The position numbers and the translations under genes are program-made. Under the pieces are notes generated by a model. The model saw only the letters and a list, made by a program, of their open reading frames with translations, had not been told where the DNA came from and ran no database searches. 64,000 bases of DNA. Source: Escherichia coli O127:H6 str. E2348/69. GTDB lineage: Bacteria; Pseudomonadota; Gammaproteobacteria; Enterobacterales; Enterobacteriaceae. The stretch is taken from the NCBI RefSeq assembly GCF_000026545.1, contig NC_011601.1. One strand, written 5' to 3'. The first letter of the stretch is position 1. Each line of letters opens with the position of its first letter. Shown here in pieces: positions 7,694 through 46,696 of this stretch.

Positions 7694-7793
7694 AGGCCTG
7701 ATGCGCTTCGCTTATCAGGCCTACATGAATTCTGTAATCTATTGAATTTGCAAACTTTTGTAGGCCGGATAAGGCGTTTGTGCCGCATCCGGC
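7694..7793. repeat. REP/BIME repeat cluster downstream of pfkA
   Basis: AGGCCTGATGCGCTTCGCTTATCAGGCCTAC and TGTAGGCCGGATAAGGCGTTTGTGCCGCATCCGGCA REP units in inverted orientation. Confidence 0.75.
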
Positions 7794-20917: not shown

Positions 20918-21448
20918 TTACGCTTTGTAGCTTAATTCTTCGATGGTGTGGAAATGGTTGGTATAGATGCAAATGTCGCCTGCAATATCCAACGCCTTTT
21001 CAGCAATTTCACGGGCGCTAAGTTCAGTGTTTTCTAACAGCGCGCGCGCCGCAGCCTGGGCGTAAGGGCCGCCAGAGCCGATAGCAATAAGATCGTTTTC
21101 TGGCTGCACCACGTCACCGTTACCGGTGATGATAAGCGATGCAGTTTCATCCGCGACTGCCAGCAGTGCTTCAAGTTTGCGCAGCATGCGATCGGTACGC
21201 CAGTCTTTCGCCAGCTCAACGGCGGCTTTGACCAGATGGCCCTGATGCATTTCCAGTTTACGTTCAAACAGTTCGAACAGCGTAAAAGCATCCGCAGTAC
21301 CGCCCGCAAAGCCCGCGATGACTTTGTCGTTGTACAGACGGCGGACCTTTTTCACGTTGCCTTTCATTACGGTATTGCCCAACGTGGCCTGACCATCACC
21401 AGCGATGACCACATGGCCGTTACGGCGTACGCTTACTATAGTTGTCAC
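20918..21448 (-). CDS. hslV: ATP-dependent protease peptidase subunit HslV
   Basis: 176-aa [23 protein letters not shown] (N-terminal Thr nucleophile after Met). Confidence 0.96.
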
Positions 21449-21540
21449 GAGCTGACCCCTTGGTTACGAATACAGAGTACAAACCCCGTACAAAAGTACG
21501 GGGCATAATGCAATTATAGATGGGGGGGATTTTGAGGGTT

Positions 21541-23697: not shown

Positions 23698-26055
<2,358 letters not shown>

Positions 26056-26059
26056 TTAG

Positions 26060-26311
<252 letters not shown>

Positions 26312-28796: not shown

Positions 28797-31229
28797 ATGA
28801 GTGTGATTGCGCAGGCAGGGGCGAAAGGTCGTCAACTGCATAAATTTGGTGGCAGTAGTCTGGCTGATGTGAAGTGTTATTTGCGTGTCGCGGGCATTAT
28901 GGCGGAGTACTCTCAGCCTGACGATATGATGGTGGTTTCCGCCGCCGGTAGCACCACTAACCAGTTGATTAACTGGTTGAAACTAAGCCAGACCGATCGT
29001 CTCTCTGCGCATCAGGTTCAACAAACATTACGTCGTTATCAGTGCGATCTGATTAGCGGCCTGCTACCCGCCGAAGAAGCCGATAACCTCATTAGCGCTT
29101 TTGTCAGCGATCTTGAGCGCCTGGCGGCGTTGCTCGACAGCGGTATTAACGATGCGGTGTATGCGGAAGTGGTGGGCCACGGTGAAGTGTGGTCGGCGCG
29201 CCTGATGTCTGCGGTGCTTAATCAACAAGGGCTGCCATCGGCCTGGCTTGATGCCCGCGAGTTTTTACGCGCTGAACGCGCTGCGCAACCGCAGGTTGAT
29301 GAAGGGCTTTCGTACCCGTTGCTGCAACAGCTACTGGTACAACATCCGGGCAAACGTCTGGTGGTGACCGGGTTTATCAGCCGTAACAACGCCGGTGAAA
29401 CGGTGCTGCTTGGGCGTAACGGTTCCGACTATTCCGCGACACAAATCGGTGCGCTGGCGGGTGTTTCTCGCGTAACCATCTGGAGTGACGTCGCCGGGGT
29501 ATATAGCGCCGACCCGCGTAAAGTGAAAGATGCCTGCCTGCTGCCGTTGCTGCGTCTGGATGAAGCCAGCGAACTGGCGCGTCTGGCGGCTCCCGTTCTT
29601 CATGCCCGTACTTTACAGCCCGTTTCTGGCAGCGAAATCGACCTGCAACTGCGCTGTAGCTACACGCCGGATCAAGGTTCCACGCGCATTGAACGCGTGC
29701 TGGCCTCCGGTACTGGTGCGCGTATTGTCACCAGCCATGATGATGTCTGCTTGATTGAGTTTCAGGTGCCCGCCAGCCAGGATTTCAAACTGGCGCATAA
29801 AGAGATCGACCAGATCCTGAAACGTGCTCAGGTGCGCCCACTGGCGGTTGGCGTGCATAACGATCGCCAGTTGCTGCAATTTTGCTACACCTCAGAAGTG
29901 GCCGACAGTGCGCTGAAAATCCTCGACGAAGCGGGATTACCTGGCGAACTGCGCCTGCGTCAGGGGCTGGCGCTGGTGGCGATGGTTGGGGCGGGCGTCA
30001 CCCGTAACCCGCTGCATTGCCACCGCTTCTGGCAGCAACTGAAAGGCCAGCCGGTCGAGTTTACCTGGCAGTCTGATGATGGCATCAGCCTGGTGGCAGT
30101 ACTGCGCACCGGCCCGACCGAAAGCCTGATTCAGGGGCTGCATCAGTCCGTCTTCCGCGCGGAAAAACGCATCGGCCTGGTATTGTTCGGTAAGGGCAAT
30201 ATCGGTTCCCGCTGGCTGGAACTGTTCGCCCGTGAGCAGAGTACGCTTTCGGCACGTACCGGCTTTGAATTTGTGCTGGCAGGCGTGGTGGACAGCCGCC
30301 GCAGCCTGTTGAGCTATGACGGGCTGGACGCCAGCCGCGCGTTAGCCTTCTTCAACGATGAAGCGGTCGAGCAGGATGAAGAGTCGCTGTTCCTGTGGAT
30401 GCGCGCCCACCCGTATGATGATTTAGTGGTGCTGGACGTTACCGCCAGCCAGCAGCTCGCTGACCAGTATCTTGATTTCGCCAGCCACGGTTTCCACGTC
30501 ATCAGTGCCAACAAACTGGCAGGAGCGAGCGACAGCAATAAATATCGCCAGATCCACGACGCCTTCGAAAAAACCGGGCGTCACTGGCTGTACAATGCCA
30601 CTGTCGGTGCGGGTTTGCCGATCAACCATACCGTGCGCGATCTGATCGACAGCGGCGATACCATTTTGTCGATCAGTGGGATCTTCTCTGGCACGCTCTC
30701 CTGGCTGTTCCTGCAATTCGACGGTAGCGTGCCGTTTACCGAACTGGTGGATCAGGCGTGGCAGCAGGGCTTAACCGAGCCTGACCCGCGTGATGACCTT
30801 TCCGGCAAAGACGTGATGCGCAAGCTGGTGATTCTGGCGCGTGAAGCGGGTTACAACATTGAACCGGACCAGGTACGTGTTGAATCACTGGTACCTGCCC
30901 ATTGCGAAGGCGGCAGCATCGACCATTTCTTTGAAAATGGCGATGAACTTAACGAGCAGATGGTGCAACGACTGGAAGCGGCCCGCGAAATGGGGCTGGT
31001 GCTGCGCTACGTGGCGCGTTTCGATGCCAATGGCAAAGCGCGTGTGGGCGTGGAAGCGGTGCGTGAAGACCATCCGCTGGCATCACTACTGCCATGCGAT
31101 AACGTCTTTGCCATCGAAAGCCGCTGGTATCGCGACAACCCGCTGGTGATCCGCGGGCCAGGTGCAGGGCGCGACGTCACCGCCGGGGCGATTCAGTCGG
31201 ATATCAACCGGCTGGCGCAGTTGTTGTAG
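28797..31229 (+). CDS. metL: Bifunctional aspartokinase II / homoserine dehydrogenase II
   Basis: 810-aa ORF starting 3 bp after the metB stop; MSVIAQAGAKGRQLHKFGGSSLADVKCYLRVAG. Confidence 0.95.
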   Translation: MSVIAQAGAKGRQLHKFGGSSLADVKCYLRVAGIMAEYSQPDDMMVVSAAGSTTNQLINWLKLSQTDRLSAHQVQQTLRRYQCDLISGLLPAEEADNLISAFVSDLERLAALLDSGINDAVYAEVVGHGEVWSARLMSAVLNQQGLPSAWLDAREFLRAERAAQPQVDEGLSYPLLQQLLVQHPGKRLVVTGFISRNNAGETVLLGRNGSDYSATQIGALAGVSRVTIWSDVAGVYSADPRKVKDACLLPLLRLDEASELARLAAPVLHARTLQPVSGSEIDLQLRCSYTPDQGSTRIERVLASGTGARIVTSHDDVCLIEFQVPASQDFKLAHKEIDQILKRAQVRPLAVGVHNDRQLLQFCYTSEVADSALKILDEAGLPGELRLRQGLALVAMVGAGVTRNPLHCHRFWQQLKGQPVEFTWQSDDGISLVAVLRTGPTESLIQGLHQSVFRAEKRIGLVLFGKGNIGSRWLELFAREQSTLSARTGFEFVLAGVVDSRRSLLSYDGLDASRALAFFNDEAVEQDEESLFLWMRAHPYDDLVVLDVTASQQLADQYLDFASHGFHVISANKLAGASDSNKYRQIHDAFEKTGRHWLYNATVGAGLPINHTVRDLIDSGDTILSISGIFSGTLSWLFLQFDGSVPFTELVDQAWQQGLTEPDPRDDLSGKDVMRKLVILAREAGYNIEPDQVRVESLVPAHCEGGSIDHFFENGDELNEQMVQRLEAAREMGLVLRYVARFDANGKARVGVEAVREDHPLASLLPCDNVFAIESRWYRDNPLVIRGPGAGRDVTAGAIQSDINRLAQLL

Positions 31230-31241
31230 TGATTATTGAAC

Positions 31242-31269
31242 AAAAGCTGGCAGTTGCCAGCTTTTGTTG
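31242..31269 (+). terminator. Rho-independent terminator downstream of metL
   Basis: AAAAGCTGGCA-GT-TGCCAGCTTTTGTTG. Confidence 0.8.
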
Positions 31270-31329
31270 TCACCCCTAAACCTCTTCCTGGGGAAGTGGT
31301 GATTGATTGTCATTTTGCCTTTGGTCAGT

Positions 31330-31353
31330 GCCCCCGGTAATAAGGGGGCTTTT
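31330..31353 (+). terminator. Second hairpin plus T-run at the left edge of the metL-metF accessory region
   Basis: GCCCCC-GGTAATAA-GGGGGC followed by TTTTG. Confidence 0.4.
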
Positions 31354-31446
31354 GTGTTGAGCGATGAAGTAACAGAGTGAATGGTGAAGTTATTAATGAC
31401 AATTACAAAATGACATTAAGTAACAATATCTAAAATGTCACCTAAT

Positions 31447-32307
31447 TTAAAATTGATAACCAATAGTAGTATAGGTTCCCCATCCTGTATTTTTTAATTC
31501 AAATGGACCATCTCCGAAGTTAACCTTCTCTCCCGCATTCCATTGTCCACCGTTGTGAAAATAACGTAGTGTAAATGCAAATTTCCAGTGTTCATATAGA
31601 AGGGAAAGGATATGGCTTGAAGCAATAGCATTACTGGTTCGTTTATTATTGTGTGACTTGTCCGCAAGATCGGAGCCAAAATCAAAGTTAGTAAAACTAT
31701 TGTATACCAATCGTCCTCCGAATAAATTTGTAAGAGGGATGCTATATTTTATTTTGAATCGATATCCGTCCCATTCATTTTCATTAGCGGCACCATAGTT
31801 TTGCCACTGATACTTGGCGTATATATTGGCAGAAAGCTTAATTGGTAGACCCGTGTCGATATCTGTACCAAGCCCCATATACCATGTACTTTGCCGGGAT
31901 GACTGGTTGTCACCCATATCATAGACATAGTTGTTTGCAATGAACCATTCTTTAAATGGGCCGAACGCAAGATTTAATCCGGTCAATTTGTCAATGGAAA
32001 ACCGAGGTTCTATTTCCGTAAATAGTGGTGAGCCCTCATCCCAGATCCCAACATCATAGTGACTGCCGACGCCAAAGAATTTCGGTAGATCAACATAACC
32101 ATAAAAATCAAACCAGTCTTTTCTTCCTGCTACAGTATATTCAGGGTAGAGGTCGTTAGTCAGTCTTGGGCCAAAGCGAGAGTCTGTGCGACCAATGACA
32201 TTCAAGCTTTGATGTAACCAGCTTTCATCAATTTTAATTTCCTGAGCGTTTCCAATGCAAGGTATTAATAGAATGGATAAAGCTATCCAGTGCTTTTTTA
32301 TATACAT
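31447..32307 (-). CDS. Tsx/OmpK-family outer-membrane nucleoside-specific channel (accessory paralog)
   Basis: 286-aa ORF; N-terminal signal peptide ([21 protein letters not shown]|QE), aromatic-rich beta-barrel-like sequence, C-terminal ...GYQF ending in Phe as in Tsx; last gene of a minus-strand three-gene cluster. Confidence 0.6.
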
Positions 32308-32383
32308 AAATATATCTCTTATATATTGTTGATTTAGAGAGAAATAATGTCATCCAGTGAATGAATGGTATTATAAGTTTTTG

Positions 32384-34009
32384 TTATTTGCTTACTTCTA
32401 CCCGCATTTCATTTACCTGTGCAGGAGTAATCTTGTGGCCTTTCTTAAAATAATCGATTACGACATTGGACATGTTATTTCCGGCGCGGACCTGGACATT
32501 TTTCCCTTCTTTGAATGCCAGAAAACCATCGCCCCCAAGTGCAAGGAAAGTCGTAGTCGCAACATGGTAAATATTCGTATCAACGATCTCTTCACCATTA
32601 ATTTTAAAAGATACAATGCGCTGACCTACTGGTTTCTGCAGGGTATAGCGCATTTCTGCGCCTTTTGACATTTGCAGGATGCCATTGGTAAGCGATGCCC
32701 CGTGCTCCAGTAGGTTACGCAGATCCTTACCGCTGAGATCCATTTCAGTAAGTTCATTCTTGAAGGGGAATGTACTGGTAATGTCACCAAAGGTAATCGT
32801 GCCTGCATTTATATCAGCACGTAAACTGCCGGAGTTTATCAACGCAATTTGTGCAGTCGGTGCAGCGACAAGCATTGCATCGGTAAACAGGTTGCCAAGT
32901 TGCGATGACTCACCGTAGGCACGAGTTAATGCAATCGATGATTCACCGACTGGTTGGCGTACAATATCCGCCAGTTTTTTATTCCAGCCATTGATAACTT
33001 TTTGTGTGGTTGGATCGGGTATCCATTCATCGGCATAAACCGTTTTCAGCTCAAAGCTCTTCACTTTATGAGTACGAGCTGTAGGGTTGACATCAAGGAT
33101 TAATTTACCAATATCGATACCGCCACTGTCAGTCGAAAGGATTAAGGTGTTGCCGACTTTGATTGGTTCTGGCGTTCCGACGTGGGCATGCCCGGTAATC
33201 AGAATATCCAATCCTTTCACCTTGCTTGCGGTTTGAATATCTTTATCCAGCGCACGTCTAACATCTGTATTGCCAATGCTGGACTGACGCGCCGGTACGC
33301 CTTCATGAACCAGCGCCACGGTGAGGTCAACCTTATCACGTAACTCGTCGATATAATGCTGCAAATACTTCACTTCATCACGTGCTTCAATCCCCTGATT
33401 CTTGAGGGTCGCGGAAGATTTATCAAATCGGTTATTATTGTCATTATCGAGTCCCTGGAGAGAGAGCTCCGAGACCGTGTCATTAAATGCAAATACGCCG
33501 TGTAGCCCAACAATACCAATCTTGATGCCATCTTTTTCCAGGATGGTGTAGGGCTTGTTCCAGAAGGGTTTCTCACTCTCTTTATGATAAACATTGCCTA
33601 ATAAAACAGGGAAATTCGCTTTGCTTAATTGTCGGAGGGCATTATCCCAGCCATGGTCAAACTCATGATTACCGATTGATACTGCGTCAAAAGGCATGGT
33701 ATTCATAATATCAATTATTGCTTCGCCCTTTGTCAGGCTACTGATATATGGCCCGGTGAAATAGTCTCCAGCATCAAAATAAAAGGTGGCTTTATTTTTG
33801 GCTTTCTCTTGTTTTACTAACGTGGATATATTGGCAAAGCCACCAATGTCGCGTTTTCCGTCTGCGACATACGGTACTTTATAGGAATCCACATGAGCGT
33901 GAAGATCATTGGTATAAATAATCGTGACATCCTGCGCCATGACTGAGGTCGAAAAAATAGTCAGCAATGTTGCGGCAAGTAAAGTACGCTGCGCTGTTTT
34001 CATTCGCAT
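32384..34009 (-). CDS. Secreted UshA-like bifunctional metallophosphatase/5'-nucleotidase, paralog 1
   Basis: 541-aa ORF; signal peptide ...SVMA|QDV; calcineurin-like motifs [26 protein letters not shown]; C-terminal 5'-nucleotidase domain (GNLFTDAM, FPFKNEL). Confidence 0.8.
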   Translation of the reverse strand: MRMKTAQRTLLAATLLTIFSTSVMAQDVTIIYTNDLHAHVDSYKVPYVADGKRDIGGFANISTLVKQEKAKNKATFYFDAGDYFTGPYISSLTKGEAIIDIMNTMPFDAVSIGNHEFDHGWDNALRQLSKANFPVLLGNVYHKESEKPFWNKPYTILEKDGIKIGIVGLHGVFAFNDTVSELSLQGLDNDNNNRFDKSSATLKNQGIEARDEVKYLQHYIDELRDKVDLTVALVHEGVPARQSSIGNTDVRRALDKDIQTASKVKGLDILITGHAHVGTPEPIKVGNTLILSTDSGGIDIGKLILDVNPTARTHKVKSFELKTVYADEWIPDPTTQKVINGWNKKLADIVRQPVGESSIALTRAYGESSQLGNLFTDAMLVAAPTAQIALINSGSLRADINAGTITFGDITSTFPFKNELTEMDLSGKDLRNLLEHGASLTNGILQMSKGAEMRYTLQKPVGQRIVSFKINGEEIVDTNIYHVATTTFLALGGDGFLAFKEGKNVQVRAGNNMSNVVIDYFKKGHKITPAQVNEMRVEVSK

Positions 34010-34043
34010 TCCTTGTTAAATAAATTGACTGATAAATGAGATT

Positions 34044-35597
34044 TTATTTGGCGACGTCCATGACTCGTTTAGTTAAGTCTGGGGTGACAGGTTTATGATT
34101 TTTGAAATAATCGATGATAGATTCCGCCGAGGTTGTTCCCGGTATCGTCTTCACATTTTTTCCATTCAAAAATGCTTCAAAACCGTCACCACCACTGGCA
34201 CAAAAGGAGTGCGTGGCAATACGATATGTTTGATTATCTTCCACGGGTTTGCCGTTAATGGTGAAAGAGATTAACCGTTGGTTGAGTGGTTTTTTGCTGT
34301 CATAGACAACCGCAACGCTTTTTGAAACCTGTAACACACCGTTAGTTAGATTGGTTGCATGCGTCATCAATGATTTGAGATCGCGGCCCGTCAAATCCAT
34401 CTCGATGAGGTCATTATTAAAGGGGAATGTGCTAATAACATCTCCCAGTGTGATATCGCCTTTAGGAAAATCAGCTCGCATCCCACCGCTATTTTGAAAT
34501 CCGGCAACGGCATCAGGTGTTTTTTCCATCATTGCATCAAGAATAAGGTTGCCGGTAGAAGAGGAACTACCATACTCACGTGTTAAAACTATGGGAGAAT
34601 GGCCGACAACTTCCTGTGTTATTTTGTTAAGCTGTGCACTCCATTTATCAATAGTATTTTGAACGATGGTGTCAGGTTTAAATTGATCTGCAAAGATGGT
34701 GATTAACTCACCATTATAACTATCAATTTTCTTCGTTTTCGGATTGTAATCAAGCACAAGTTTTCCGATGTTGGTGCCGTATGCATCGGTAGATACAATT
34801 AATGTGTTATTAACTTTTATTGGTTGCGGTGTTCCGACATGTGCGTGACCGGTAATTAAGACATCAACACCATTCACTTTTTTAGCTGTCTCAATATCTG
34901 CCTGTAGTAGCCGCTCCACATCTTTACTACCAAAGCTTGATTGACGCGCCGGGACACCTTCGTGAATTAGCAAAACGGTAATGTCGACTTTACCTTTTAA
35001 TTCTGCAAGTGCTTTATTTAAAAATTTAATTTCGTCTCTGGCTTCTACGCCTTCACGTGCTTTTGCCGCGACAGTATCATAGAAAGCGAATGCGCCATGC
35101 AATCCAATCACACCAATCTTTAAACCATCTTTTTCGATAATGGTCCACGGATGATCCCAAACTGGTTTATTCGTATCGGTGTAGTAGATATTTCCCAGCA
35201 GAATGGGGAATTTTGCTTTTGATAACTGAGACACCATATTGGGCACACCGTGATCGAACTCGTGATTACCAACAGACACCGCATCAAAGGGCATAGTGTT
35301 CATGATATCAATAATAGCTTCACCTTTGGTCAGTGTGCTGATATACGGCCCGGTAAAATAGTCGCCTGCATCAAAGAAAAACACATCTTTGCTTTTTTTC
35401 TTCGCTTCATTAACGATGCCTGCAATATTAGCCATACCACCTATAAGTCTGTTCTTATCAACAGCGATGATTTTTGCCGGATTGACATGTGCGTGAATGT
35501 CATTCGTATAATAAATAGTAACGTCCTGAGCTAGAACACTGTGAGAAAATATCACGCCGAATATGACTGATAATGTTGTAAATACAGTTTTCATCAT
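34044..35597 (-). CDS. Secreted UshA-like bifunctional metallophosphatase/5'-nucleotidase, paralog 2
   Basis: 517-aa ORF; signal peptide ...SVLA|QDV; motifs [33 protein letters not shown]; more divergent from paralogs 1 and 3. Confidence 0.8.
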   Translation of the reverse strand: MMKTVFTTLSVIFGVIFSHSVLAQDVTIYYTNDIHAHVNPAKIIAVDKNRLIGGMANIAGIVNEAKKKSKDVFFFDAGDYFTGPYISTLTKGEAIIDIMNTMPFDAVSVGNHEFDHGVPNMVSQLSKAKFPILLGNIYYTDTNKPVWDHPWTIIEKDGLKIGVIGLHGAFAFYDTVAAKAREGVEARDEIKFLNKALAELKGKVDITVLLIHEGVPARQSSFGSKDVERLLQADIETAKKVNGVDVLITGHAHVGTPQPIKVNNTLIVSTDAYGTNIGKLVLDYNPKTKKIDSYNGELITIFADQFKPDTIVQNTIDKWSAQLNKITQEVVGHSPIVLTREYGSSSSTGNLILDAMMEKTPDAVAGFQNSGGMRADFPKGDITLGDVISTFPFNNDLIEMDLTGRDLKSLMTHATNLTNGVLQVSKSVAVVYDSKKPLNQRLISFTINGKPVEDNQTYRIATHSFCASGGDGFEAFLNGKNVKTIPGTTSAESIIDYFKNHKPVTPDLTKRVMDVAK

Positions 35598-35642
35598 CCC
35601 TCCTAGATAGGGGGTGTTACATTTGTTGAATTATTTAAATAA

Positions 35643-35659
35643 AAGACACATCGTGTCTT
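35643..35659. promoter_or_regulatory. Perfect 7-3-7 palindrome AAGACAC-ATC-GTGTCTT between the Cys-rich gene and nucleotidase paralog 2 (candidate operator or weak terminator)
   Basis: Exact inverted repeat read directly from the sequence, ~50 bp upstream of the paralog-2 start codon and ~170 bp downstream of the Cys-rich gene stop. Confidence 0.45.
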
Positions 35660-35691
35660 ATTTTATGTAAGCATAGTTCAGAAAAGTATTG

Positions 35692-35707
35692 TGTGATCTT
35701 AGTAACA
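35692..35707. promoter_or_regulatory. CRP-like site upstream of the nucleotidase-2 / nucleotidase-1 / tsx-like cluster
   Basis: TGTGA-TCTTAG-TAACA: one perfect half-site and one half-site with a single mismatch to TGTGA-N6-TCACA. Confidence 0.45.
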
Positions 35708-35826
35708 AATAATGTTATTAATTAAACATTGACCATGATTATATTTCACGGTCATACATTTATATATTTAATTAAATGAAAGGTAGTGATCTCTCTTAAT
35801 TTATGGTCGTTTGTCGAGTGTATTGA

Positions 35827-36951
35827 CTAACAAGATGGAGTGAGCGATTCATTGTATTTTAACGCCAGTGAGGTCAGCATTTGCGTTACGCGACCTGCGG
35901 ATAATAACGCGCTTTGGGTAAAGTCGTGTTGGTCTGTCAGCCATGTGATAAAACAACGACTGGTTGCCAGAGAAACATTTGCGCCCCTTTCTAAGCAGGC
36001 TCCCGTGAGTAGGCAGACCATCTTGCAGTTATTCCCCTGCTCCCAGCGCTGCCACTGATTTTGCCACCAACCATGGTATGTCGTTCCCTTAAAATGCCAG
36101 GGCGTATCAGCGTTACTGTCACTGATTTCTTCTTCTACGAACCAAAGTTCACCTTGTTGTTGGCGGAACTGATCTGCCCAGGCTGTAATAATTGCGCCTC
36201 TTAGAAAACATTCGTGTGAAATAATATGCGTTTTGACATCTGGATAGCGGATTTTCAGTATTCTGAAATGCCCGTGTGCCTTGATAACCGGGCGTAGTAT
36301 GGCTCCCTTACCGTTGCGCTTGAGTACAGCACTGCCATACTGAATTTCATCGAACTGGCTCCGGCGCAAGAATTGCGCTTCACGCATATCTACCTTCTGC
36401 ACGATATCGCGATGGTGCATAGTTGGTTCTGTGTTGCCCTTGTAACTGTACCGCAGACTGTCTCCTGTCTGATGTTGCGTATAATTCGTGGAGAGATGAA
36501 GAATGTTGCCACGAGTGGCGTCAAGACTGACTAAAACATACAGTTTTTGTACTGCGCTGGCCCCTTGAAAGGGTATGAACAGTTGAACGGTTTCAATGGC
36601 CTGGGGATGCGTAATTTCTTTCTGATATTTTTTAGGCGTCCAGACTTTTTTGCAGTTACGGCATTGAATGCGTTGCGAACCCTGTGGATTGTGACCATAA
36701 CAAATCATGTCTGTGCCATAACATACCGGGCAGAAATGGCCTTTCTCAATTGCATAAGTAGACAAGTGAACTGACAACCAGTCACGAAATTGTTGCTCGT
36801 CAAACAACGGCGGGTAACTGCCACATGCCCGACAGTGCAGTGCCGGATAACCCAGTTTATAGTCTGGCCAACTGTAATCTTCCGATGAGGCCAATCCCAA
36901 ATTTCGGCAACCGAACGTTTTACAGGCATTAATCGTAAACAGAGTCGACAT
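35827..36951 (-). CDS. Hypothetical cysteine-rich protein with two putative N-terminal zinc ribbons and a Trp-rich C-terminal domain
   Basis: 374-aa ORF; Cys clusters C-x4-C...C-x2-C and C-x2-C-x17-C-x2-C (HFCPVCYG...IQCRNCKK); no signal peptide; not recognised as any K-12 protein; AT-rich flanking intergenic regions. Confidence 0.6.
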   Translation of the reverse strand: MSTLFTINACKTFGCRNLGLASSEDYSWPDYKLGYPALHCRACGSYPPLFDEQQFRDWLSVHLSTYAIEKGHFCPVCYGTDMICYGHNPQGSQRIQCRNCKKVWTPKKYQKEITHPQAIETVQLFIPFQGASAVQKLYVLVSLDATRGNILHLSTNYTQHQTGDSLRYSYKGNTEPTMHHRDIVQKVDMREAQFLRRSQFDEIQYGSAVLKRNGKGAILRPVIKAHGHFRILKIRYPDVKTHIISHECFLRGAIITAWADQFRQQQGELWFVEEEISDSNADTPWHFKGTTYHGWWQNQWQRWEQGNNCKMVCLLTGACLERGANVSLATSRCFITWLTDQHDFTQSALLSAGRVTQMLTSLALKYNESLTPSC

Positions 36952-37008
36952 ATATCACCAACGATTTCACAAGGTCGTTGATTTTGTCCGGCAACTATCC
37001 CCTGCGGA

Positions 37009-37024
37009 TGTGATTACTCTCACA
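37009..37024. promoter_or_regulatory. Consensus CRP binding site in the divergent promoter between the Cys-rich gene and nucleotidase paralog 3
   Basis: TGTGA-TTACTC-TCACA, a perfect match to both CRP half-sites with 6-bp spacer, ~55-70 bp from both divergent start codons. Confidence 0.6.
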
Positions 37025-37077
37025 TAAATAAGTCTTTCAGAACGTAATGTAGCAATCCTTTATCTCACTGAAAGGGA

Positions 37078-38637
37078 TTGTTTATGAAAATTAAAATACT
37101 TGCTGCGGGTATCGCATTAACACTGCCGTTCTGGGCTTGCGCTAAAGATGTCACTATTATTTATACCAACGACCTCCATGCGCATGTAGAACCTTATAAA
37201 GTGCCGTGGATCGCTGACGGTAAACGGGATATTGGCGGCTGGGCAAATATCACTACGCTGGTTAAGCAAGAAAAAGCAAAAAATAAAGCGACATGGTTTT
37301 TTGATGCGGGCGACTATTTTACCGGGCCATATATCAGCAGCCTGACCAAAGGTAAGGCTATTATCGATATTATGAATACTATGCCGTTTGATGCCGTCAC
37401 AATAGGCAACCATGAATTTGACCACGGCTGGGACAACACATTATTACAGTTGAGCCAGGCAAAATTCCCTATTGTGCAGGGCAATATTTTTTATCAGAAC
37501 AGCAGTAAATCATTCTGGGATAAGCCCTATACCATCATCGAAAAAGACGGCGTGAAAATTGGCGTTATAGGTTTGCACGGAGTATTTGCCTTCAATGATA
37601 CGGTATCTGCTGCCACGCGCGTGGGTATTGAAGCGCGCGATGAAATTAAATGGCTACAACGTTATATCGATGAACTCAAAGGCAAGGTTGATTTGACCGT
37701 CGCCCTGATCCACGAAGGTGTTCCAGCCCGCCAGTCCAGTATGGGAGGCACAGATGTGCGTCGCGCGTTGGATAAAGATATTCAGACGGCAAGTCAGGTG
37801 AAAGGGCTGGATATTTTGATCACCGGACATGCACATGTGGGTACGCCGGAACCGATTAAAGTCGGCAATACGCTCATCCTCTCCACTGACAGCGGCGGGA
37901 TTGATGTGGGCAAACTGGTTCTCGACTACAAAGAGAAGCCGCATAATTTTACGGTGAAAAACTTCGAGCTTAAAACCATTTACGCTGACGAGTGGAAGCC
38001 CGATCTGCAAACGAAACAGGTGATCGACGGCTGGAATAAAAAGCTTGATGAAGTGGTGCAACAAACGGTGGCGCAATCGCCGGTTGAATTAAAACGTGCC
38101 TATGGTGAATCGGCTTCCCTCGGGAACCTGGCGGCTGACGCCTTACTGGCAGCAGCGGGTAAAAATACCCAACTGGCTTTAACAAACTCTGGTGGTATCC
38201 GCAATGAGATCCCCGCAGGGGCGATCACGATGGGCGGCGTCATCAGTACCTTCCCGTTCCCCAACGAACTGGTGACGATGGAACTCACGGGTAAACAATT
38301 ACGCAGTCTGATGGAACACGGCGCAAGTTTAAGCAATGGCGTTTTACAGGTATCGAAAGGCCTGGAAATGAAGTACGACAGCAGCAAGCCGGTTGGTCAG
38401 CGGGTAATCACACTGACTCTGAATGGCAAACCCATTGAAGATGCGACGGTTTATCACATTGCTACTCAGAGTTTCCTTGCTGATGGTGGAGATGGTTTTA
38501 CCGCCTTTACCGAAGGGAAAGCGCGTAACACAACGGGCGGTTATTACGTTTATCACGCGGTGGTTGATTACTTCAAAGCGGGCAACACCATTACGGATGA
38601 ACAGCTCAACGGTATGCGCGTGAAGGATATCAAATAA
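37078..38637 (+). CDS. Secreted UshA-like bifunctional metallophosphatase/5'-nucleotidase, paralog 3
   Basis: 519-aa ORF; signal peptide ...FWACA|KDV; motifs [33 protein letters not shown]; closest to paralog 1. Confidence 0.8.
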
Positions 38638-38947
38638 AAGTGCGCACTGAATTGACTCAACCGTTTGTTACCCGTTGATTGCGCAGATCCTGTATTCGGC
38701 CTACGCGAGGGCGCAGGCCGAATCAGATGCCTTAGCATCACCATCCGGTGGCAGGACGTTGTTTTTAGAATTAGCCCAGGTGTCGCTGTGTTGTCAGAAT
38801 ATGAGTCAAAACGTGCGAGGTGGATTGCGCTATAGAGAAATCTTTTATCGCCTCTAATTAAGATGAGTTTTTTTCATCTTCCCTGATTTTTCCTCACCAT
38901 CATTGGTTATTTTTCGGTTGACGCCCTTCGGCTTTTCCTTCATCTTT

Positions 38948-38978
38948 ACATCTGGACGTCTAAACGGATAGATGTGCA
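38948..38978. promoter_or_regulatory. MetJ operator (met boxes) upstream of metF
   Basis: ACATCTGGACGTCTAAACGGATAGATGTGCAC contains tandem met-box-like octamers including GACGTCT. Confidence 0.7.
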
Positions 38979-39015
38979 CAACACAACATATAACGATAAG
39001 CGATTGATGAGGTAA

Positions 39016-39909
<894 letters not shown>

Positions 39910-44248: not shown

Positions 44249-44779
44249 GTGCAGTTTATGAAACATTCATTTGAAGTAAAACTTGCCGCTGTAAATCATT
44301 ACCTGGCTGGTCATGCAGGCATCATTTCTACGGCAAAACTCTTTCAACTTTCTCACACCAGCCTCTCACACTGGATTAATCTTTTTCTTCTTCACGGTCC
44401 TCGGGCACTGGATTGCAGACACAAGCGTAGCTATTCTCCTGAAGATAAACTTTGCGTGGTTCTTTATGCTCTCGGGCATTCTGAGTCTCTACCCCGGGTA
44501 GCTGCCCGGTTTAACATTCCCAGCCACAACACGGTTAAAAACTGGATAAAAGGCTACCGCAAATCTGGTAATGAGGCCTTTATCAGGTGCAGGAAGGAGA
44601 AAAGCATGACCCGTTCTGATGATACCCATGAAAACGAGGCAAACATGACGCCGGAAGAGATGAAGAATGAGCTGCGTTATCTTCGCGCAGAAAATGCATA
44701 TCTGAAAGCCATGCAGGAGCATCTTCTGGAAAAAAAGCGCCAGGAGCTGGAGAAAAAACGAAAGTCATCCAGAGCCTGA
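44249..44779 (+). CDS. IS3-family transposase OrfA (HTH DNA-binding subunit)
   Basis: 176-aa ORF with N-terminal HTH and C-terminal leucine-zipper-like region (NELRYLRAENAYLKAMQEHL); architecture resembles IS150 InsJ. Confidence 0.8.
   Translation: MQFMKHSFEVKLAAVNHYLAGHAGIISTAKLFQLSHTSLSHWINLFLLHGPRALDCRHKRSYSPEDKLCVVLYALGHSESLPRVAARFNIPSHNTVKNWIKGYRKSGNEAFIRCRKEKSMTRSDDTHENEANMTPEEMKNELRYLRAENAYLKAMQEHLLEKKRQELEKKRKSSRA
44729..44735 (+). promoter_or_regulatory. Programmed -1 ribosomal frameshift heptamer A AAA AAG of the IS3-family element
   Basis: Heptamer lies in the orfA frame ~45 nt before the orfA stop; the -1 frame is open from here into the OrfB-like sequence. Confidence 0.65.
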
Positions 44780-45321
44780 GGTACGGACACTGCCAGTCTG
44801 ACCTGTTAAAGGCCGCAGGGCTGGCCAGAAGCACGCTGTACTACCAGCTGTCACTGCAGAAGGCTAAGGACAAGTATGCTGATGTGAAACAGCTCATAGC
44901 CTCCATCTTCCATGAACACCGGGGATGTTATGGGTACCGGCGGATCCATTGTGAGCTTCAGAAAAGAGGTCTTAAGTTCAGTGGCAAAACGGTGCGAAAA
45001 CTGATGCAACAGCTCGGCCTGAAGTCTCCTGTGCGCCTGAAGAAATACCGGTCTTACCGGGGAAATATGGGACTCGCTGCAGAAAATATCCTTCAGCGAC
45101 AGTTCAAAGCGGAAGCTCCCTGTGAGAAATGGGTGACAGATATCACCGAATTCAGGGCTGGCGGACAAAAACTGTACCTGTCCCCGATACTTGATTTGTT
45201 TAACGGGGAAATCGTGGCGTGGGAAACGGCCTGCAGGCCTACAGAGGAGCTGGTGAAGCGGATGTTAAATAAGGGGCTGGAAAGCCTTGCTGAAGGGGAG
45301 AAACCGCTGCTCCACAGTGAT
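44729..45321 (+). pseudogene. IS3-family transposase OrfB (DDE integrase core), N-terminal segment interrupted by an IS110-family insertion
   Basis: -1 frame is open from the A AAA AAG slippery site; translation ...YGYRRIHCELQKRG...KWVTDITEF...PLLHSD resembles IS150 InsK and then abruptly diverges at residue D. Confidence 0.75.
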
Positions 45322-46696
45322 AGTAATAATGCCGGTATCAGTTTTTATCATCACTCTGTTTGCTGTTTAACCAGACTGGTGTGATTACTGATGCAGTGAA
45401 GACCTTCCCGCATCCTGACTCACACAGCGATCGACCCTTTGTGTCCTGCCCTGGACCTGTCGGTTGCCGGAAGCGCCTTCATGCGAGGCGTCTCCTCACC
45501 GATGCGCGTGACTCAAGAAGGGCCTGACGGTTTGTCTCGTTACTGTCCTGTCCGGGTTATCTGTCTGGAGATTCAACTCTGTTTCCTCACAGGAGCTCTG
45601 TTATGGCAGGTAAAGTTACGGAAACCGCTGTTGTGGGTGGCGTGGATACACATAAAAATCTGCACGTTGCCGCTGTCGTAGATCAGAACAATAAAGTTCT
45701 GGGGACCCAGTTTTTCTCCACAACACGGCAAGGTTACCGGCAGATGCTGGCATGGATGACTTCGTTTGGGGCATTAAAGCGAATTGGTGTTGAGTGTACA
45801 GGCACCTATGGATCAGGTCTGCTTCGCTATTTACAGAATGCCGGGTTAGACGTTCTTGAGGTGACTGCGCCAGATCGGATGGAGCGACGCAAACGGGGTA
45901 AAAGTGACACGATTGATGCTGAATGTGCCGCTCACGCCGCATTCTCCGGAATAAGAACCGTCACACCCAAAACGCGCAATGGCATGATTGAGTCTCTGCG
46001 GGTATTAAAAACTTGCCGAAAAACAGCAATATCAGCCCGCAGAGTCGCTCTCCAGATTATCCATTCCAATATTATCTCTGCCCCGGATGAATTACGTGAA
46101 CAGCTCAGAAATATGACGCGTATGCAGCTCATCAGGACTCTGGGATCCTGGCGGCCTGATGCCAGTGAATACCGCAATGTTACCAACGTTTATCGTATTT
46201 CATTAAAGTCCCTTGCCCGACGCTATCTCGAGTTACATGACGAAATCGCTGATTTGGATGTCATGATTGCGGCAATTGTCGATGAGCTGGCGCCTGAACT
46301 GATTAAACGTAATGCTATTGGATACGAAAGCGCTTCGCAGTTGCTGATCACGGCAGGAGACAATCCCCAACGATTAAGATCAGAATCAGGTTTTGCGGCA
46401 CTGTGTGGTGTCAGCCCTGTTCCCGTATCTTCAGGAAAAACGAATCGTTATCGACTTAACCGGGGTGGAGATCGTGCTGCAAATAGTGCACTTCACATCA
46501 TTGCCATCGGACGTTTGCGAACTGACGATAAAACGAAGGAATATGTCGCCAGACGAGTAGCGGAAGGGCATACAAAAATGGAAGCAATACGCTGCCTGAA
46601 GCGCTATATCTCACGCGAAGTTTATACATTACTGCGTAATCAAAACAGGCAGATCAACAGCATCCCGATAACGGCTTGACTCTTAGAAGGGCGTCC
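45322..46696 (+). mobile_element. IS110-family insertion sequence (about 1.37 kb) nested inside the IS3-family orfB
   Basis: Boundaries inferred from the exact interruption of the IS3 OrfB reading frame (PLLHSD | QGWHYR); contains a ~280-bp non-coding left end and a single transposase gene; no terminal inverted repeats evident, as is typical for IS110 family. Confidence 0.7.
45603..46679 (+). CDS. IS110-family transposase (DEDD/RuvC-like N-terminal domain plus C-terminal transposase domain)
   Basis: 358-aa ORF MAGKVTETAVVGGVDTHKNLHVAAVVDQNNKVLG...GVECTGTYGSGL...; the VGIDxxK / ECTG motif pattern typical of IS110/IS621-type transposases. Confidence 0.85.
   Translation: MAGKVTETAVVGGVDTHKNLHVAAVVDQNNKVLGTQFFSTTRQGYRQMLAWMTSFGALKRIGVECTGTYGSGLLRYLQNAGLDVLEVTAPDRMERRKRGKSDTIDAECAAHAAFSGIRTVTPKTRNGMIESLRVLKTCRKTAISARRVALQIIHSNIISAPDELREQLRNMTRMQLIRTLGSWRPDASEYRNVTNVYRISLKSLARRYLELHDEIADLDVMIAAIVDELAPELIKRNAIGYESASQLLITAGDNPQRLRSESGFAALCGVSPVPVSSGKTNRYRLNRGGDRAANSALHIIAIGRLRTDDKTKEYVARRVAEGHTKMEAIRCLKRYISREVYTLLRNQNRQINSIPITA

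Follow-up and report, generated by a model that had tools for sequence, protein, structure and literature searches.

A probable two-layer nucleotide-scavenging locus between metL and metF of Escherichia coli E2348/69 with an apparently transposase-derived partner protein

What fills the interval between metL and metF in Escherichia coli O127:H6 strain E2348/69, where did it come from and how is it controlled? In K-12 MG1655 the two genes are separated by 348 bp, whereas in E2348/69 the spacer is ~7.6 kb long and holds five genes, for a Tsx-like channel, three 5'-nucleotidase-like proteins and a Cys-rich protein. We analysed a 64-kb window that is 100% identical to the E2348/69 chromosome; all coordinates are positions in this window unless a locus number (L) or another genome is given. 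metL ends at 31229, metF starts at 39019, and the five open reading frames (ORFs) in between are intact and agree with the RefSeq coding sequences. The nucleotidase-like proteins, all annotated in RefSeq as "bifunctional metallophosphatase/5'-nucleotidase", are labelled here NtA, NtB and NtC. The original prediction for this DNA had correctly put the K-12 spacer at only a few hundred bp, and had taken the insert for one horizontally acquired module. On the evidence below we think it probable that the interval is instead a two-layer locus for scavenging of extracellular nucleotides under control of cyclic AMP (cAMP) and CRP. The first layer would be a divergent pair ancestral to Enterobacteriaceae, NtC and an IS1-derived protein with zinc ribbons and an RNase-H fold, arranged around a 132-bp control region and kept in about one third of E. 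coli. The second would be an exchanged segment of ~5.5 kb, adding a CRP-like promoter region that drives NtB, NtA and the Tsx-like channel.

The segment that varies between strains covers ~31230-38865, a little more than the 31270-38650 first stated. Its left edge is the terminator repeat of metL, and the sequence that follows the metL stop codon is unlike both K-12 and ST131; at the right edge homology to K-12 upstream of metF restarts at ~38866, at GTTTTTTTCATCTTCCC. By windows the GC content of the insert is 0.36-0.48 compared with 0.54-0.60 for metL and katG, and by gene it is 0.39 for tsx-like, 0.41 for NtB, 0.44 for NtA, 0.47 for the Cys-rich gene and 0.48 for NtC, compared with 0.58 for metL and 0.52 for metF. 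The AT-richer five-gene insert of ~7.4 kb seen earlier is thus real, with slightly wider limits. Its low GC, and the lack of its genes in K-12 and in about two thirds of E. coli genomes, would suit a single island inserted whole into an ancestrally short metL-metF spacer. Comparison between genomes makes such an origin very improbable and contradicts it for the right-hand part.

Among 5,426 complete E. coli genomes, all five genes are present in 658 (12%), as in E2348/69; ~1,185 genomes (the 1,843 with NtC minus these 658) have the Cys-rich gene and NtC only, as in ST131; and the site is empty in the remaining ~66%, as in K-12. The Cys-rich gene co-occurs with NtC and was counted in at least 1,744 genomes. 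The five-gene form was seen in E2348/69, strain 536, avian pathogenic E. coli (APEC) O2:K1 and uropathogenic E. coli (UPEC) isolates. For NtC (1,843 copies) and for the Cys-rich gene alike, two copies were reported on plasmid records. We then scanned an alignment of the Cys-rich protein against one genome per prokaryotic species, which gave 37 loci, and mapped their neighbours by tblastn. In ~25 species representatives of at least 9 genera the divergent pair of Cys-rich gene and NtC occupies the metL-metF interval: several Citrobacter species, Klebsiella pneumoniae, K. oxytoca, K. spallanzanii, Kosakonia, Phytobacter, Superficieibacter, Kluyvera, Pseudocitrobacter, Escherichia whittamii, another Escherichia lineage and Salmonella enterica subsp. 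arizonae. Between genera NtC is 87-92% identical, similar to MetL (90-95%); hence the right third of the insert is syntenic in many genera and diverges in parallel with the flanking core genes, which an island inserted whole does not explain. The 3' ends of metL and the Cys-rich gene overlap tail-to-tail in ST131, Klebsiella, Kosakonia, Phytobacter, Pseudocitrobacter and E. whittamii, and the recurrence of this overlap in many genera makes independent insertions very unlikely.

Since the pair is syntenic at metL-metF across Enterobacteriaceae, the K-12 state is best explained by loss, and these comparisons are most parsimoniously read as an ancestral presence of the pair at this site, followed by its loss in K-12-like strains. 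Remnants of partial deletion also exist. In E. coli 2018-05-2CC (NZ_AP027877.1, ~4384612-4385279) ~175 bp of the Cys-rich gene 3' end abut the last ~495 bp of NtC, which implies that both 5' halves and the control region were deleted and that this may be an intermediate towards the empty K-12 state. The K-12 spacer itself contains ~195 bp unrelated to E2348/69 (L003, 1731-1925), with a hairpin resembling repetitive extragenic palindromic (REP) sequences (aggccggattaagcg...gaatccggc) and an annotated hypothetical ORF of 44 codons; this filler may be a deletion scar. In S. arizonae (L037, 10001-10726) the tblastn match to the Cys-rich protein is limited to residues 126-367 next to an intact NtC that is 92% identical, and the AlphaFold database (AFDB) holds several fragmentary Salmonella versions of 204-260 amino acids (aa), so to judge from these fragments the partner gene may be decaying in Salmonella. 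The junction of NtC and metF is variable in other genera: Pseudocitrobacter cyperus (L056, 5880-7252) has a LysR regulator and a gene of the carboxymuconolactone decarboxylase family there, and four further loci (L006, L008, L015 and L025) have 1.6-5.6 kb of extra DNA between NtC and metF.

Alignment of E2348/69 with ST131 over the genes common to both located the border between the two layers inside the Cys-rich gene. From ~36,900 rightwards (5' end of the Cys-rich gene, control region, NtC and metF) the two strains are ~99-100% identical; identity drops to 82-94% at 36,630-36,930, to 72-75% at 36,030-36,630 and to ~50% at the 3' end of the gene. The two Cys-rich proteins are as a result only 77% identical, and synonymous divergence (dS) between the two E. 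coli alleles reaches ~1.8 in the C-terminal domain. A mosaic allele was also found in a metagenome-assembled relative (L004). This step in identity inside one gene indicates that recombination exchanged the last two-thirds of that gene and introduced NtB, NtA and the tsx-like gene along with them. The change from ~100% on the right of the breakpoint to 50-75% on the left likewise speaks against a single island, as does the lack of any integrase, tRNA or flanking inverted or direct repeats at the locus, where repeats are confined to stretches in which the paralogs resemble each other. From the alignment, the foreign part would be the left ~5.5 kb only, i.e. tsx-like, NtA, NtB and all but the 5' third of the Cys-rich gene. 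Segment ~31230-36700, found in only 658 genomes and with a GC content of 0.418 compared with 0.474 for the rest, has the properties of an island, and ~36700-38865, being syntenic across genera, does not. The claim of one horizontally acquired module therefore holds for the left segment only.

The donor of the left segment appears to lie outside the genomes sampled. Multi-paralog clusters elsewhere were found in Enterobacter, one Citrobacter and one atypical Escherichia genome (there between chaA and kdsA), in the order Cys / NtC-NtB-Tsx-NtA and with Tsx and NtB proteins more distant than the E2348/69 copies. We rejected them as the donor for the different gene order, the more distant Tsx and NtB, and their presence in 0 of the 5,426 complete E. 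coli genomes. A second site for the three-gene set in the genomes with two genes was rejected as well; the 60-80% matches that suggested it were, where inspected, cross-matches to NtC. Strain SCPM-O-B-8794 (classified by GTDB as Escherichia coli) has a second, larger cluster between chaA and kdsA-sirB1-prmC-prfA-hemA (L012, 2260-11131), with a gene resembling a radical-SAM maturase beside chaA and the order Cys-rich / NtC-like, two NtB-like, Tsx-like and NtA-like; its genome carries the metL-metF pair in addition (L005).

The control regions of both layers are included in Table 1. The 132 bp between the Cys-rich gene and NtC are conserved block-wise between genera in an alignment of 24 loci. 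The consensus CRP site in its centre, TGTGA-N6-TCACA, is the single zero-mismatch CRP site in the 64 kb, and a CRP-type site TGTGA-N6-T[C/A][A/G]C[A/G] at fixed spacing is found in 31/31 fetched loci with an NtC ortholog. Class II CRP-dependent promoters have their transcription start site ~41.5 nt from the CRP centre, and the putative -10 elements on both strands, with predicted starts at ~36975 (-) and ~37058 (+), suggest that one CRP site could serve both directions in this geometry. The conserved block between the CRP site and the putative NtC -10 element is a second candidate site for protein binding. Next to the start of the Cys-rich gene lies a palindrome, a candidate operator, whose arms are kept across genera with a variable spacer and which has no other zero-mismatch copy in the window. 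We recognised no CytR- or DeoR-type operator on reading the control-region alignment. In the left segment NtB is preceded by a CRP-like site with one mismatch, and after it comes TTTCTGAAC, similar on reading of the sequence to the block TTTCAGAAC in the NtC promoter. NtB, NtA and the tsx-like gene, separated by gaps of 40 and 76 bp, probably form an operon. The CRP sites noted in the original prediction are therefore present in both promoter regions, the one perfect and the other one mismatch away. Regulation at the RNA level through the conserved blocks was considered and rejected: a scan of the island against Rfam gave zero family matches even at E ≤ 1, and the folds of the palindrome and the NtC leader are not convincingly better than those of shuffled sequences. 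The palindrome as an RNA hairpin is unexceptional against shuffles (z = -0.9), and the -13.6 kcal/mol fold (z = -2.3) requires sequence upstream of the putative start site.

Table 1. Features of the metL-metF interval of E. coli E2348/69 (window positions; signals and functions are predictions from sequence).
Feature	Position	Strand	Remarks
metL (bidirectional) terminator, putative	31239-31268		Perfect 14-bp inverted repeat, 100% complementary, just 3' of the metL stop codon
tsx-like, 286 aa	31447-32307	-	Paralog of the outer-membrane nucleoside channel; end of the putative NtB-NtA-tsx operon
NtA, 539 aa	32384-34003	-	5'-nucleotidase-family metallophosphatase, predicted to be secreted
NtB, 516 aa	34044-35594	-	5'-nucleotidase-family metallophosphatase, predicted to be secreted
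TTTCTGAAC	35684 to 35676	-	Follows the CRP-like site; resembles a block of the NtC promoter
CRP-like site TGTGATCTTAGTAACA, 1 mismatch	35692-35707	-	Upstream of NtB; putative NtB-NtA-tsx promoter (35676-35707)
Terminator-like hairpin	35730-35754	-	3' of the Cys-rich gene, setting it apart from the NtB promoter
Cys-rich gene, 374 aa	35827-36951	-	Annotated 'cytoplasmic protein'
Recombination breakpoint zone	36630-36930		Inside the Cys-rich gene; identity drop compared with ST131
Palindrome CAACGA-N10-TCGTTG, candidate operator	36959-36980		8 nt upstream of the start codon of the Cys-rich gene
Cys-rich gene putative -10, CAAAAT	36987 to 36982	-	Conserved element
CRP consensus site TGTGATTACTCTCACA, putative	37009-37024		Between the divergent promoters of the Cys-rich gene and NtC
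Conserved block CTTTCAGAACG	37033-37043	+	Between the CRP site and the putative NtC -10
NtC putative -10, TAAnnT (here TAATGT)	37045-37050	+	Conserved element
NtC, 517 aa	37084-38637	+	5'-nucleotidase-family metallophosphatase, predicted to be secreted; ancestral member of the locus
metF promoter and met-box region	38866-39018	+	Common to K-12; right edge of the variable segment

In sequence the three paralogs look like intact members of the 5'-nucleotidase superfamily. NtC contains the Pfam domains Metallophos (PF00149, 4.8e-12) and 5_nucleotid_C (PF02872, 2.6e-39), precomputed annotation of the NtB cluster gives the same two domains, and each of the three proteins matches NCBIfam models of the 5'-nucleotidase superfamily, to which we assign them on these matches. 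NtA is 68% and NtB 56% identical to NtC; NtB is the most divergent paralog, with nearest relatives outside E. coli only 72-75% identical, and NtA has an insertion of ~20 aa within the N-terminal domain. The motifs NDxHAH, DAGD, GNHEFD, HEG and GHAH are invariant across the three-way alignment, as are R...NSGxxR, FPF and F..GGDGF in the C-terminal part. In the structures of UshA and CD73 such motifs supply the metal ligands, the His-Asp dyad and the base-stacking Phe that clamps the substrate together with Arg. None of the three genes has the appearance of a pseudogene, as judged from these intact motifs. Every paralog begins with a hydrophobic segment that ends in A-x-A and is followed by a conserved (Q/K)DVTI motif, and the proteins appear to be exported to the periplasm and not anchored at the surface. 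Mature NtC is identical at 497/499 residues to PDB 3IVD/3IVE ("Nucleotidase"), a construct that begins at about the predicted signal cleavage site, and NtB matches the same entries with E = 2.6e-187. We take these to be structural-genomics entries for c4898 of E. coli CFT073, 3IVE presumably with bound cytidine; no published biochemical characterisation of the protein was found in the literature. In E. coli DA61218 (L052, 3098-5425) IS1B splits NtB into two pseudogene fragments, so that a genuine IS1 has inserted at a locus with an IS1-derived gene of its own.

Outer-membrane passage would be the part of the tsx-like gene. Tsx of E. coli, a nucleoside-specific outer-membrane channel, also serves phage T6 and colicin K as receptor. 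The Tsx-like protein scores 492.8 bits in the NCBIfam Tsx model (cut-off 311) and matches PDB 1TLW, the solved E. coli Tsx barrel, with E = 7e-115 over residues 29-286, its entire mature length, with a loop deletion of 5 residues and a divergent N-terminus. It thus belongs by sequence to the Tsx nucleoside channel family, with a predicted channel specificity. In contrast to Tsx itself it is an extra paralog, about two-thirds identical, which is located beside nucleotidase genes in an operon-like arrangement and not at the tsx locus. The corresponding ORF in a published survey is 67% identical to Tsx of Salmonella (PMC12928451). The Tsx-like porin and the three UshA-like nucleotidases of the original prediction are thereby borne out by NCBIfam, Pfam and PDB matches.

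The fifth product, the Cys-rich protein, called a "cytoplasmic protein" in databases and, in distant members of its family, an "IS1 family transposase", is of another kind. It has no signal peptide and contains two zinc ribbons of the CxxC...CxxC type with four Cys each (C10/15/40/43 and C74/77/97/100), the second of which is like that of InsA from IS1. The eight Cys are invariant in close enterobacterial homologs and are kept in 44-55 of 55 sequences family-wide. Single-sequence profile matches to InsA, IS1 and IS1595 zinc ribbons are weak and below cut-off (NF050000, 23.2 bits compared with 28; PF03811, i-E 0.007), PF03811 reaches E ≤ 0.001 in 8/55 family members, and the NCBIfam IS1 model covers positions 1-62 only. 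Neither Pfam HTH_Tnp_IS1 nor PF03400 (DDE_Tnp_IS1) matches the protein, and PF03400 matches none of the 55 family members. Nevertheless, hhalign against IS1 InsAB' gave a probability of 96.6% and E = 5.5e-10 over the InsA zinc ribbon and helix-turn-helix (HTH). An AlphaFold model made from the alignment of 55 sequences, distant homologs included, has a predicted local distance difference test score (pLDDT) of 93.7 and a predicted template modelling score (pTM) of 0.93; 15 close homologs alone gave an unusable model (pLDDT 35.5). In this model the C-terminal part has the RNase-H-like fold of DDE transposases and integrases, with IS1 models among several equally good matches. Compared with InsAB' the protein has an extra N-terminal zinc ribbon and a length of 374 instead of 232 aa, and, unlike IS1, its gene has no frameshift or inverted repeats and occurs in single copy under purifying selection. 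From profile and fold it would be a cytoplasmic derivative of an IS1-type transposase, so the view that every recognisable product of the locus is envelope-located and nucleotide-related holds for four of the five proteins and fails for this one.

The family comprises 124 representative clusters among 1.84 billion proteins. A profile search against PDB sequences returned only arrays of eukaryotic C2H2 zinc fingers (best E = 1.6e-10), which we attribute to periodic Cys pairs and not to homology, and a search for relatives of the IS1 transposase for an InsB profile found almost solely near-identical IS1 copies. Two further AFDB 'cytoplasmic proteins', Q8Z9N7 of S. Typhi (327 aa) and A0A828N132 of E. 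coli (299 aa), have the same fold at ~25% identity, which suggests paralogous family members at other loci of Salmonella and E. coli. In strain AVS0456 IS1A interrupts the Cys-rich gene itself.

The Cys-rich gene behaves like a resident and not like a mobile element: it is found as one copy per genome at a fixed syntenic position across genera, without terminal repeats and with a ratio of nonsynonymous to synonymous substitution (dN/dS) of 0.07-0.17. Ten distant members of its family (21-40% identity) were looked up for their neighbourhoods, eight of them informative, and in 8/8 of these contexts genes for nucleosides or nucleotides are the immediate neighbours, divergent in 7/8. The divergent neighbours are nupC-PNP; deoD-talA-deoB-nupC with add downstream; nupC-deoC-deoA-deoB; deoB-PNP-nupG; a porin, an AphA-like phosphatase and a class II cyclic nucleotide (cNMP) phosphodiesterase (PDEase_II); and, in two contexts, 5'-nucleotidase genes. 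The features of a domesticated transposase, i.e. immobility, purifying selection and a conserved partnership with a defined set of genes, are thus all found. InsA itself is a DNA-binding repressor. As the gene is mostly divergent from its neighbours, has its control region in common with NtC, carries a palindrome at its own start and descends from InsA, we consider it close to an even call that a transposase has here been domesticated into a transcription factor specific to the locus, with the formerly catalytic domain as a possible nucleoside sensor. Tentatively, and with a little less than even confidence, we extend this to a gammaproteobacterial family, so far undescribed, of domesticated transposases descended from IS1 that would be dedicated transcription factors of nucleoside and nucleotide scavenging (deo, nupC/nupG, periplasmic nucleotidases and phosphodiesterases). 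On an equally tentative view, the design of this family would combine a pair of zinc ribbons, in some members an HTH of InsA type, and the RNase-H/DDE domain as a ligand-sensing or effector domain.

Several observations weigh against the scavenging locus and its proposed regulator. Nucleosides made in the periplasm need no Tsx channel, so the role of this gene in the module is not self-evident. All three nucleotidases fall far below every curated NCBIfam equivalog cut-off (UshA, 152-165 compared with 600 bits; NadN, 120-132 compared with 436; CpdB, 84-103 compared with 486; SoxB, 143-156 compared with 550; YfkN, 186-195 compared with 1646), and for this reason their substrates are not readable from homology. 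The distance of ~41.5 nt from the CRP centre to both start sites holds if the -10 elements are right, as these start sites are themselves predicted. With regard to the regulator, the 5'-nucleotidase gene in the eighth informative context is co-directional, and the intergenic regions of the distant homologs have no palindrome or operator in common. Furthermore, the InsA-type HTH segment of ~50-60 aa, which lies in the 78-124-aa linker region of the distant members (400-570 aa), is gone from the 374-aa enterobacterial form, and this loss weakens the argument for DNA binding. The candidate DDE positions are largely kept in the family (D144, 76%; D201, 87%; E247, 100% D/E), and given these acidic residues a catalytic role may be conceivable. 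Moreover, for none of the five genes did the literature searches yield experimental work.

Some of these points feed two other explanations, both of which we regard as rather unlikely. According to the first, the Cys-rich protein is no regulator and would be either an active or recently dead IS1-like transposase, or an RNase-H-fold nuclease or other enzyme in the turnover of nucleic acids or nucleotides. Its InsA-like zinc ribbon, its DDE/RNase-H fold with acidic residues at the candidate catalytic positions, the invariance of R197 and H228 family-wide (H246/E247 are likewise listed as invariant), the HTH loss and the one co-directional, operon-like arrangement are in keeping with this. A transposase is disfavoured by the single copy at a fixed position across genera, the lack of terminal repeats, a dN/dS of ~0.1 and the failure to detect DDE_Tnp_IS1. 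An enzyme fits poorly with the almost constant divergence from the neighbouring operon, the classic layout of regulators, and with the canonical second Asp after beta-4, whose place is seemingly taken by R/K220-P221 as judged from secondary structure only. The second explanation, which overlaps with nucleotide scavenging, holds that the paralogs act in vitamin or signal processing on non-canonical substrates: NAD or nicotinamide mononucleotide (NMN), UDP-sugars, 2',3'-cyclic or 3'-nucleotides, or cyclic dinucleotides. The spread of similarity over YfkN, UshA, NadN and CpdB, always below cut-off, a weak match to NadN_nucleosid_C in the Pfam scan and the distant Cys-family relative that adjoins the class II cNMP phosphodiesterase and the AphA-like phosphatase would agree with it. 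The C-terminal binding motifs and the best structural relatives are, however, those of 5'-nucleotidases, and the PADLOC defence models gave 0 matches for all five proteins of the locus and with that no link to defence signalling. Given the same search and the seemingly periplasmic location of the enzymes, a role in degrading phage- or host-related signalling nucleotides, which had been raised as conceivable at the outset, finds no support.

A scavenging locus under cAMP-CRP, the reading we prefer, would operate as follows. When glucose or carbon is scarce, cAMP-CRP would activate the divergent promoters of the core pair, through the central site at about -41.5 from both predicted starts and with the palindrome at the start of the Cys transcript, and also the NtB-NtA-tsx operon. 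The three exported paralogs, presumably with different substrate preferences, would strip phosphate from nucleotides in the periplasm, and the additional Tsx-like pore would increase the flux of nucleosides, possibly also of nucleotides, across the outer membrane. The core transporters NupC and NupG and the deo, udp and cdd enzymes would then use up the nucleosides. The Cys-rich protein would most likely be the regulator or sensor of the locus and retain an InsA-type recognition of DNA.

Such enzymes could also serve in interaction with the host. The Gram-positive AdsA/Nt5e enzymes and host CD73 make adenosine from host nucleotides, and by analogy the locus might use ATP, ADP, AMP or NAD released by the host to form immunomodulatory nucleosides such as adenosine, and favour B2 pathogens, i.e. 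enteropathogenic E. coli (EPEC), UPEC and APEC. The CD73/Nt5e-like fold and the presence of the five-gene form in E2348/69, 536, APEC O2:K1 and UPEC strains would agree with this. We nevertheless find it hardly likely, because the ancestral enzyme and the multi-paralog clusters occur in environmental and plant-associated genera (e.g. Kosakonia, Phytobacter, Kluyvera and Superficieibacter), the enzymes appear periplasmic and not surface-anchored, no virulence data were found in the literature, and the predicted CRP control and the association of the family with deo and nupC point to nutrition.

The components have well-studied counterparts. UshA (5'-nucleotidase/UDP-sugar hydrolase), CpdB and AphA are the core periplasmic enzymes of nucleotide scavenging in E. 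coli, and NtA, NtB and NtC resemble UshA in their two-domain architecture, catalytic motifs, signal peptide and presumed physiological logic. They differ from it in having only ~25-30% identity and in belonging to a variably present locus with three paralogs, a porin, a transposase-derived gene and a CRP site of its own. Nucleoside catabolism in E. coli (deo, udp, cdd, nupC, nupG and tsx) is controlled by CytR, DeoR and CRP. The CRP-type layout of the locus is similar, and relatives of the Cys-rich gene stand divergently beside deo and nupC, the spot for a dedicated repressor; in contrast to CytR and DeoR, the candidate regulator lies outside known families of transcription factors such as LacI or DeoR.

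The locus had at first not been recognised as a described operon, but it is on record: NtC is the protein of PDB 3IVD/3IVE, and "GR 31 (metL..metF)" is listed for APEC strain BEN2908 and is complete in the B2 model strains compared there (PMC12928451, PLoS One 2026). GR 31 is the same locus, consisting in that account of a Tsx-like ORF and three UshA-domain ORFs, the same four annotated ORFs as in E2348/69, and the independent proposal of coordinated processing and transport of nucleotides or nucleosides made there matches the dephosphorylation and subsequent uptake that had been predicted here and that remains the most economical reading. The three UshA-domain ORFs were reported there to have no BLAST identity to K-12 UshA. 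The passages on GR 31 deal with four ORFs and contain nothing on the Cys-rich gene, the ancestral and lost pair, the breakpoint or the CRP architecture. Since the enzyme and channel families are well known and the locus is already catalogued, the novelty lies in what the Cys-rich protein is and in how its gene behaves in genomes.

Elsewhere in the window Rfam matched naRNA4 (a REP-derived small RNA, 2636-2713), ES036 (7717-7758), the ClpQY promoter element (21446-21503) and the L31 ribosomal leader upstream of rpmE (26040-26092). In addition, an IS3-family element (IS1397 transposase with a programmed frameshift) lies at 44258-45603 between gldA and yijF and is not there in strain 2017-02-2CC.

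If K-12 represents a derived state that has lost the pair, the reference strain under-represents the periplasmic nucleotide metabolism of enterobacteria. One third of E. coli genomes, those of the B2 strains ST131, E2348/69 and 536 included, carry one to three additional CRP-linked nucleotidases that are predicted to be periplasmic, and these could affect growth on nucleotides of the host or the microbiota, on NAD and on breakdown products of extracellular DNA. Furthermore, a conserved and immobile IS1-like protein accompanies nucleoside genes in organisms that range from Vibrio-like ones to Escherichia. Should it prove to be a regulator, it would be a rare case of bacterial transposase domestication tied to one metabolic theme and might represent a missing regulator of the nucleoside-catabolism regulons.

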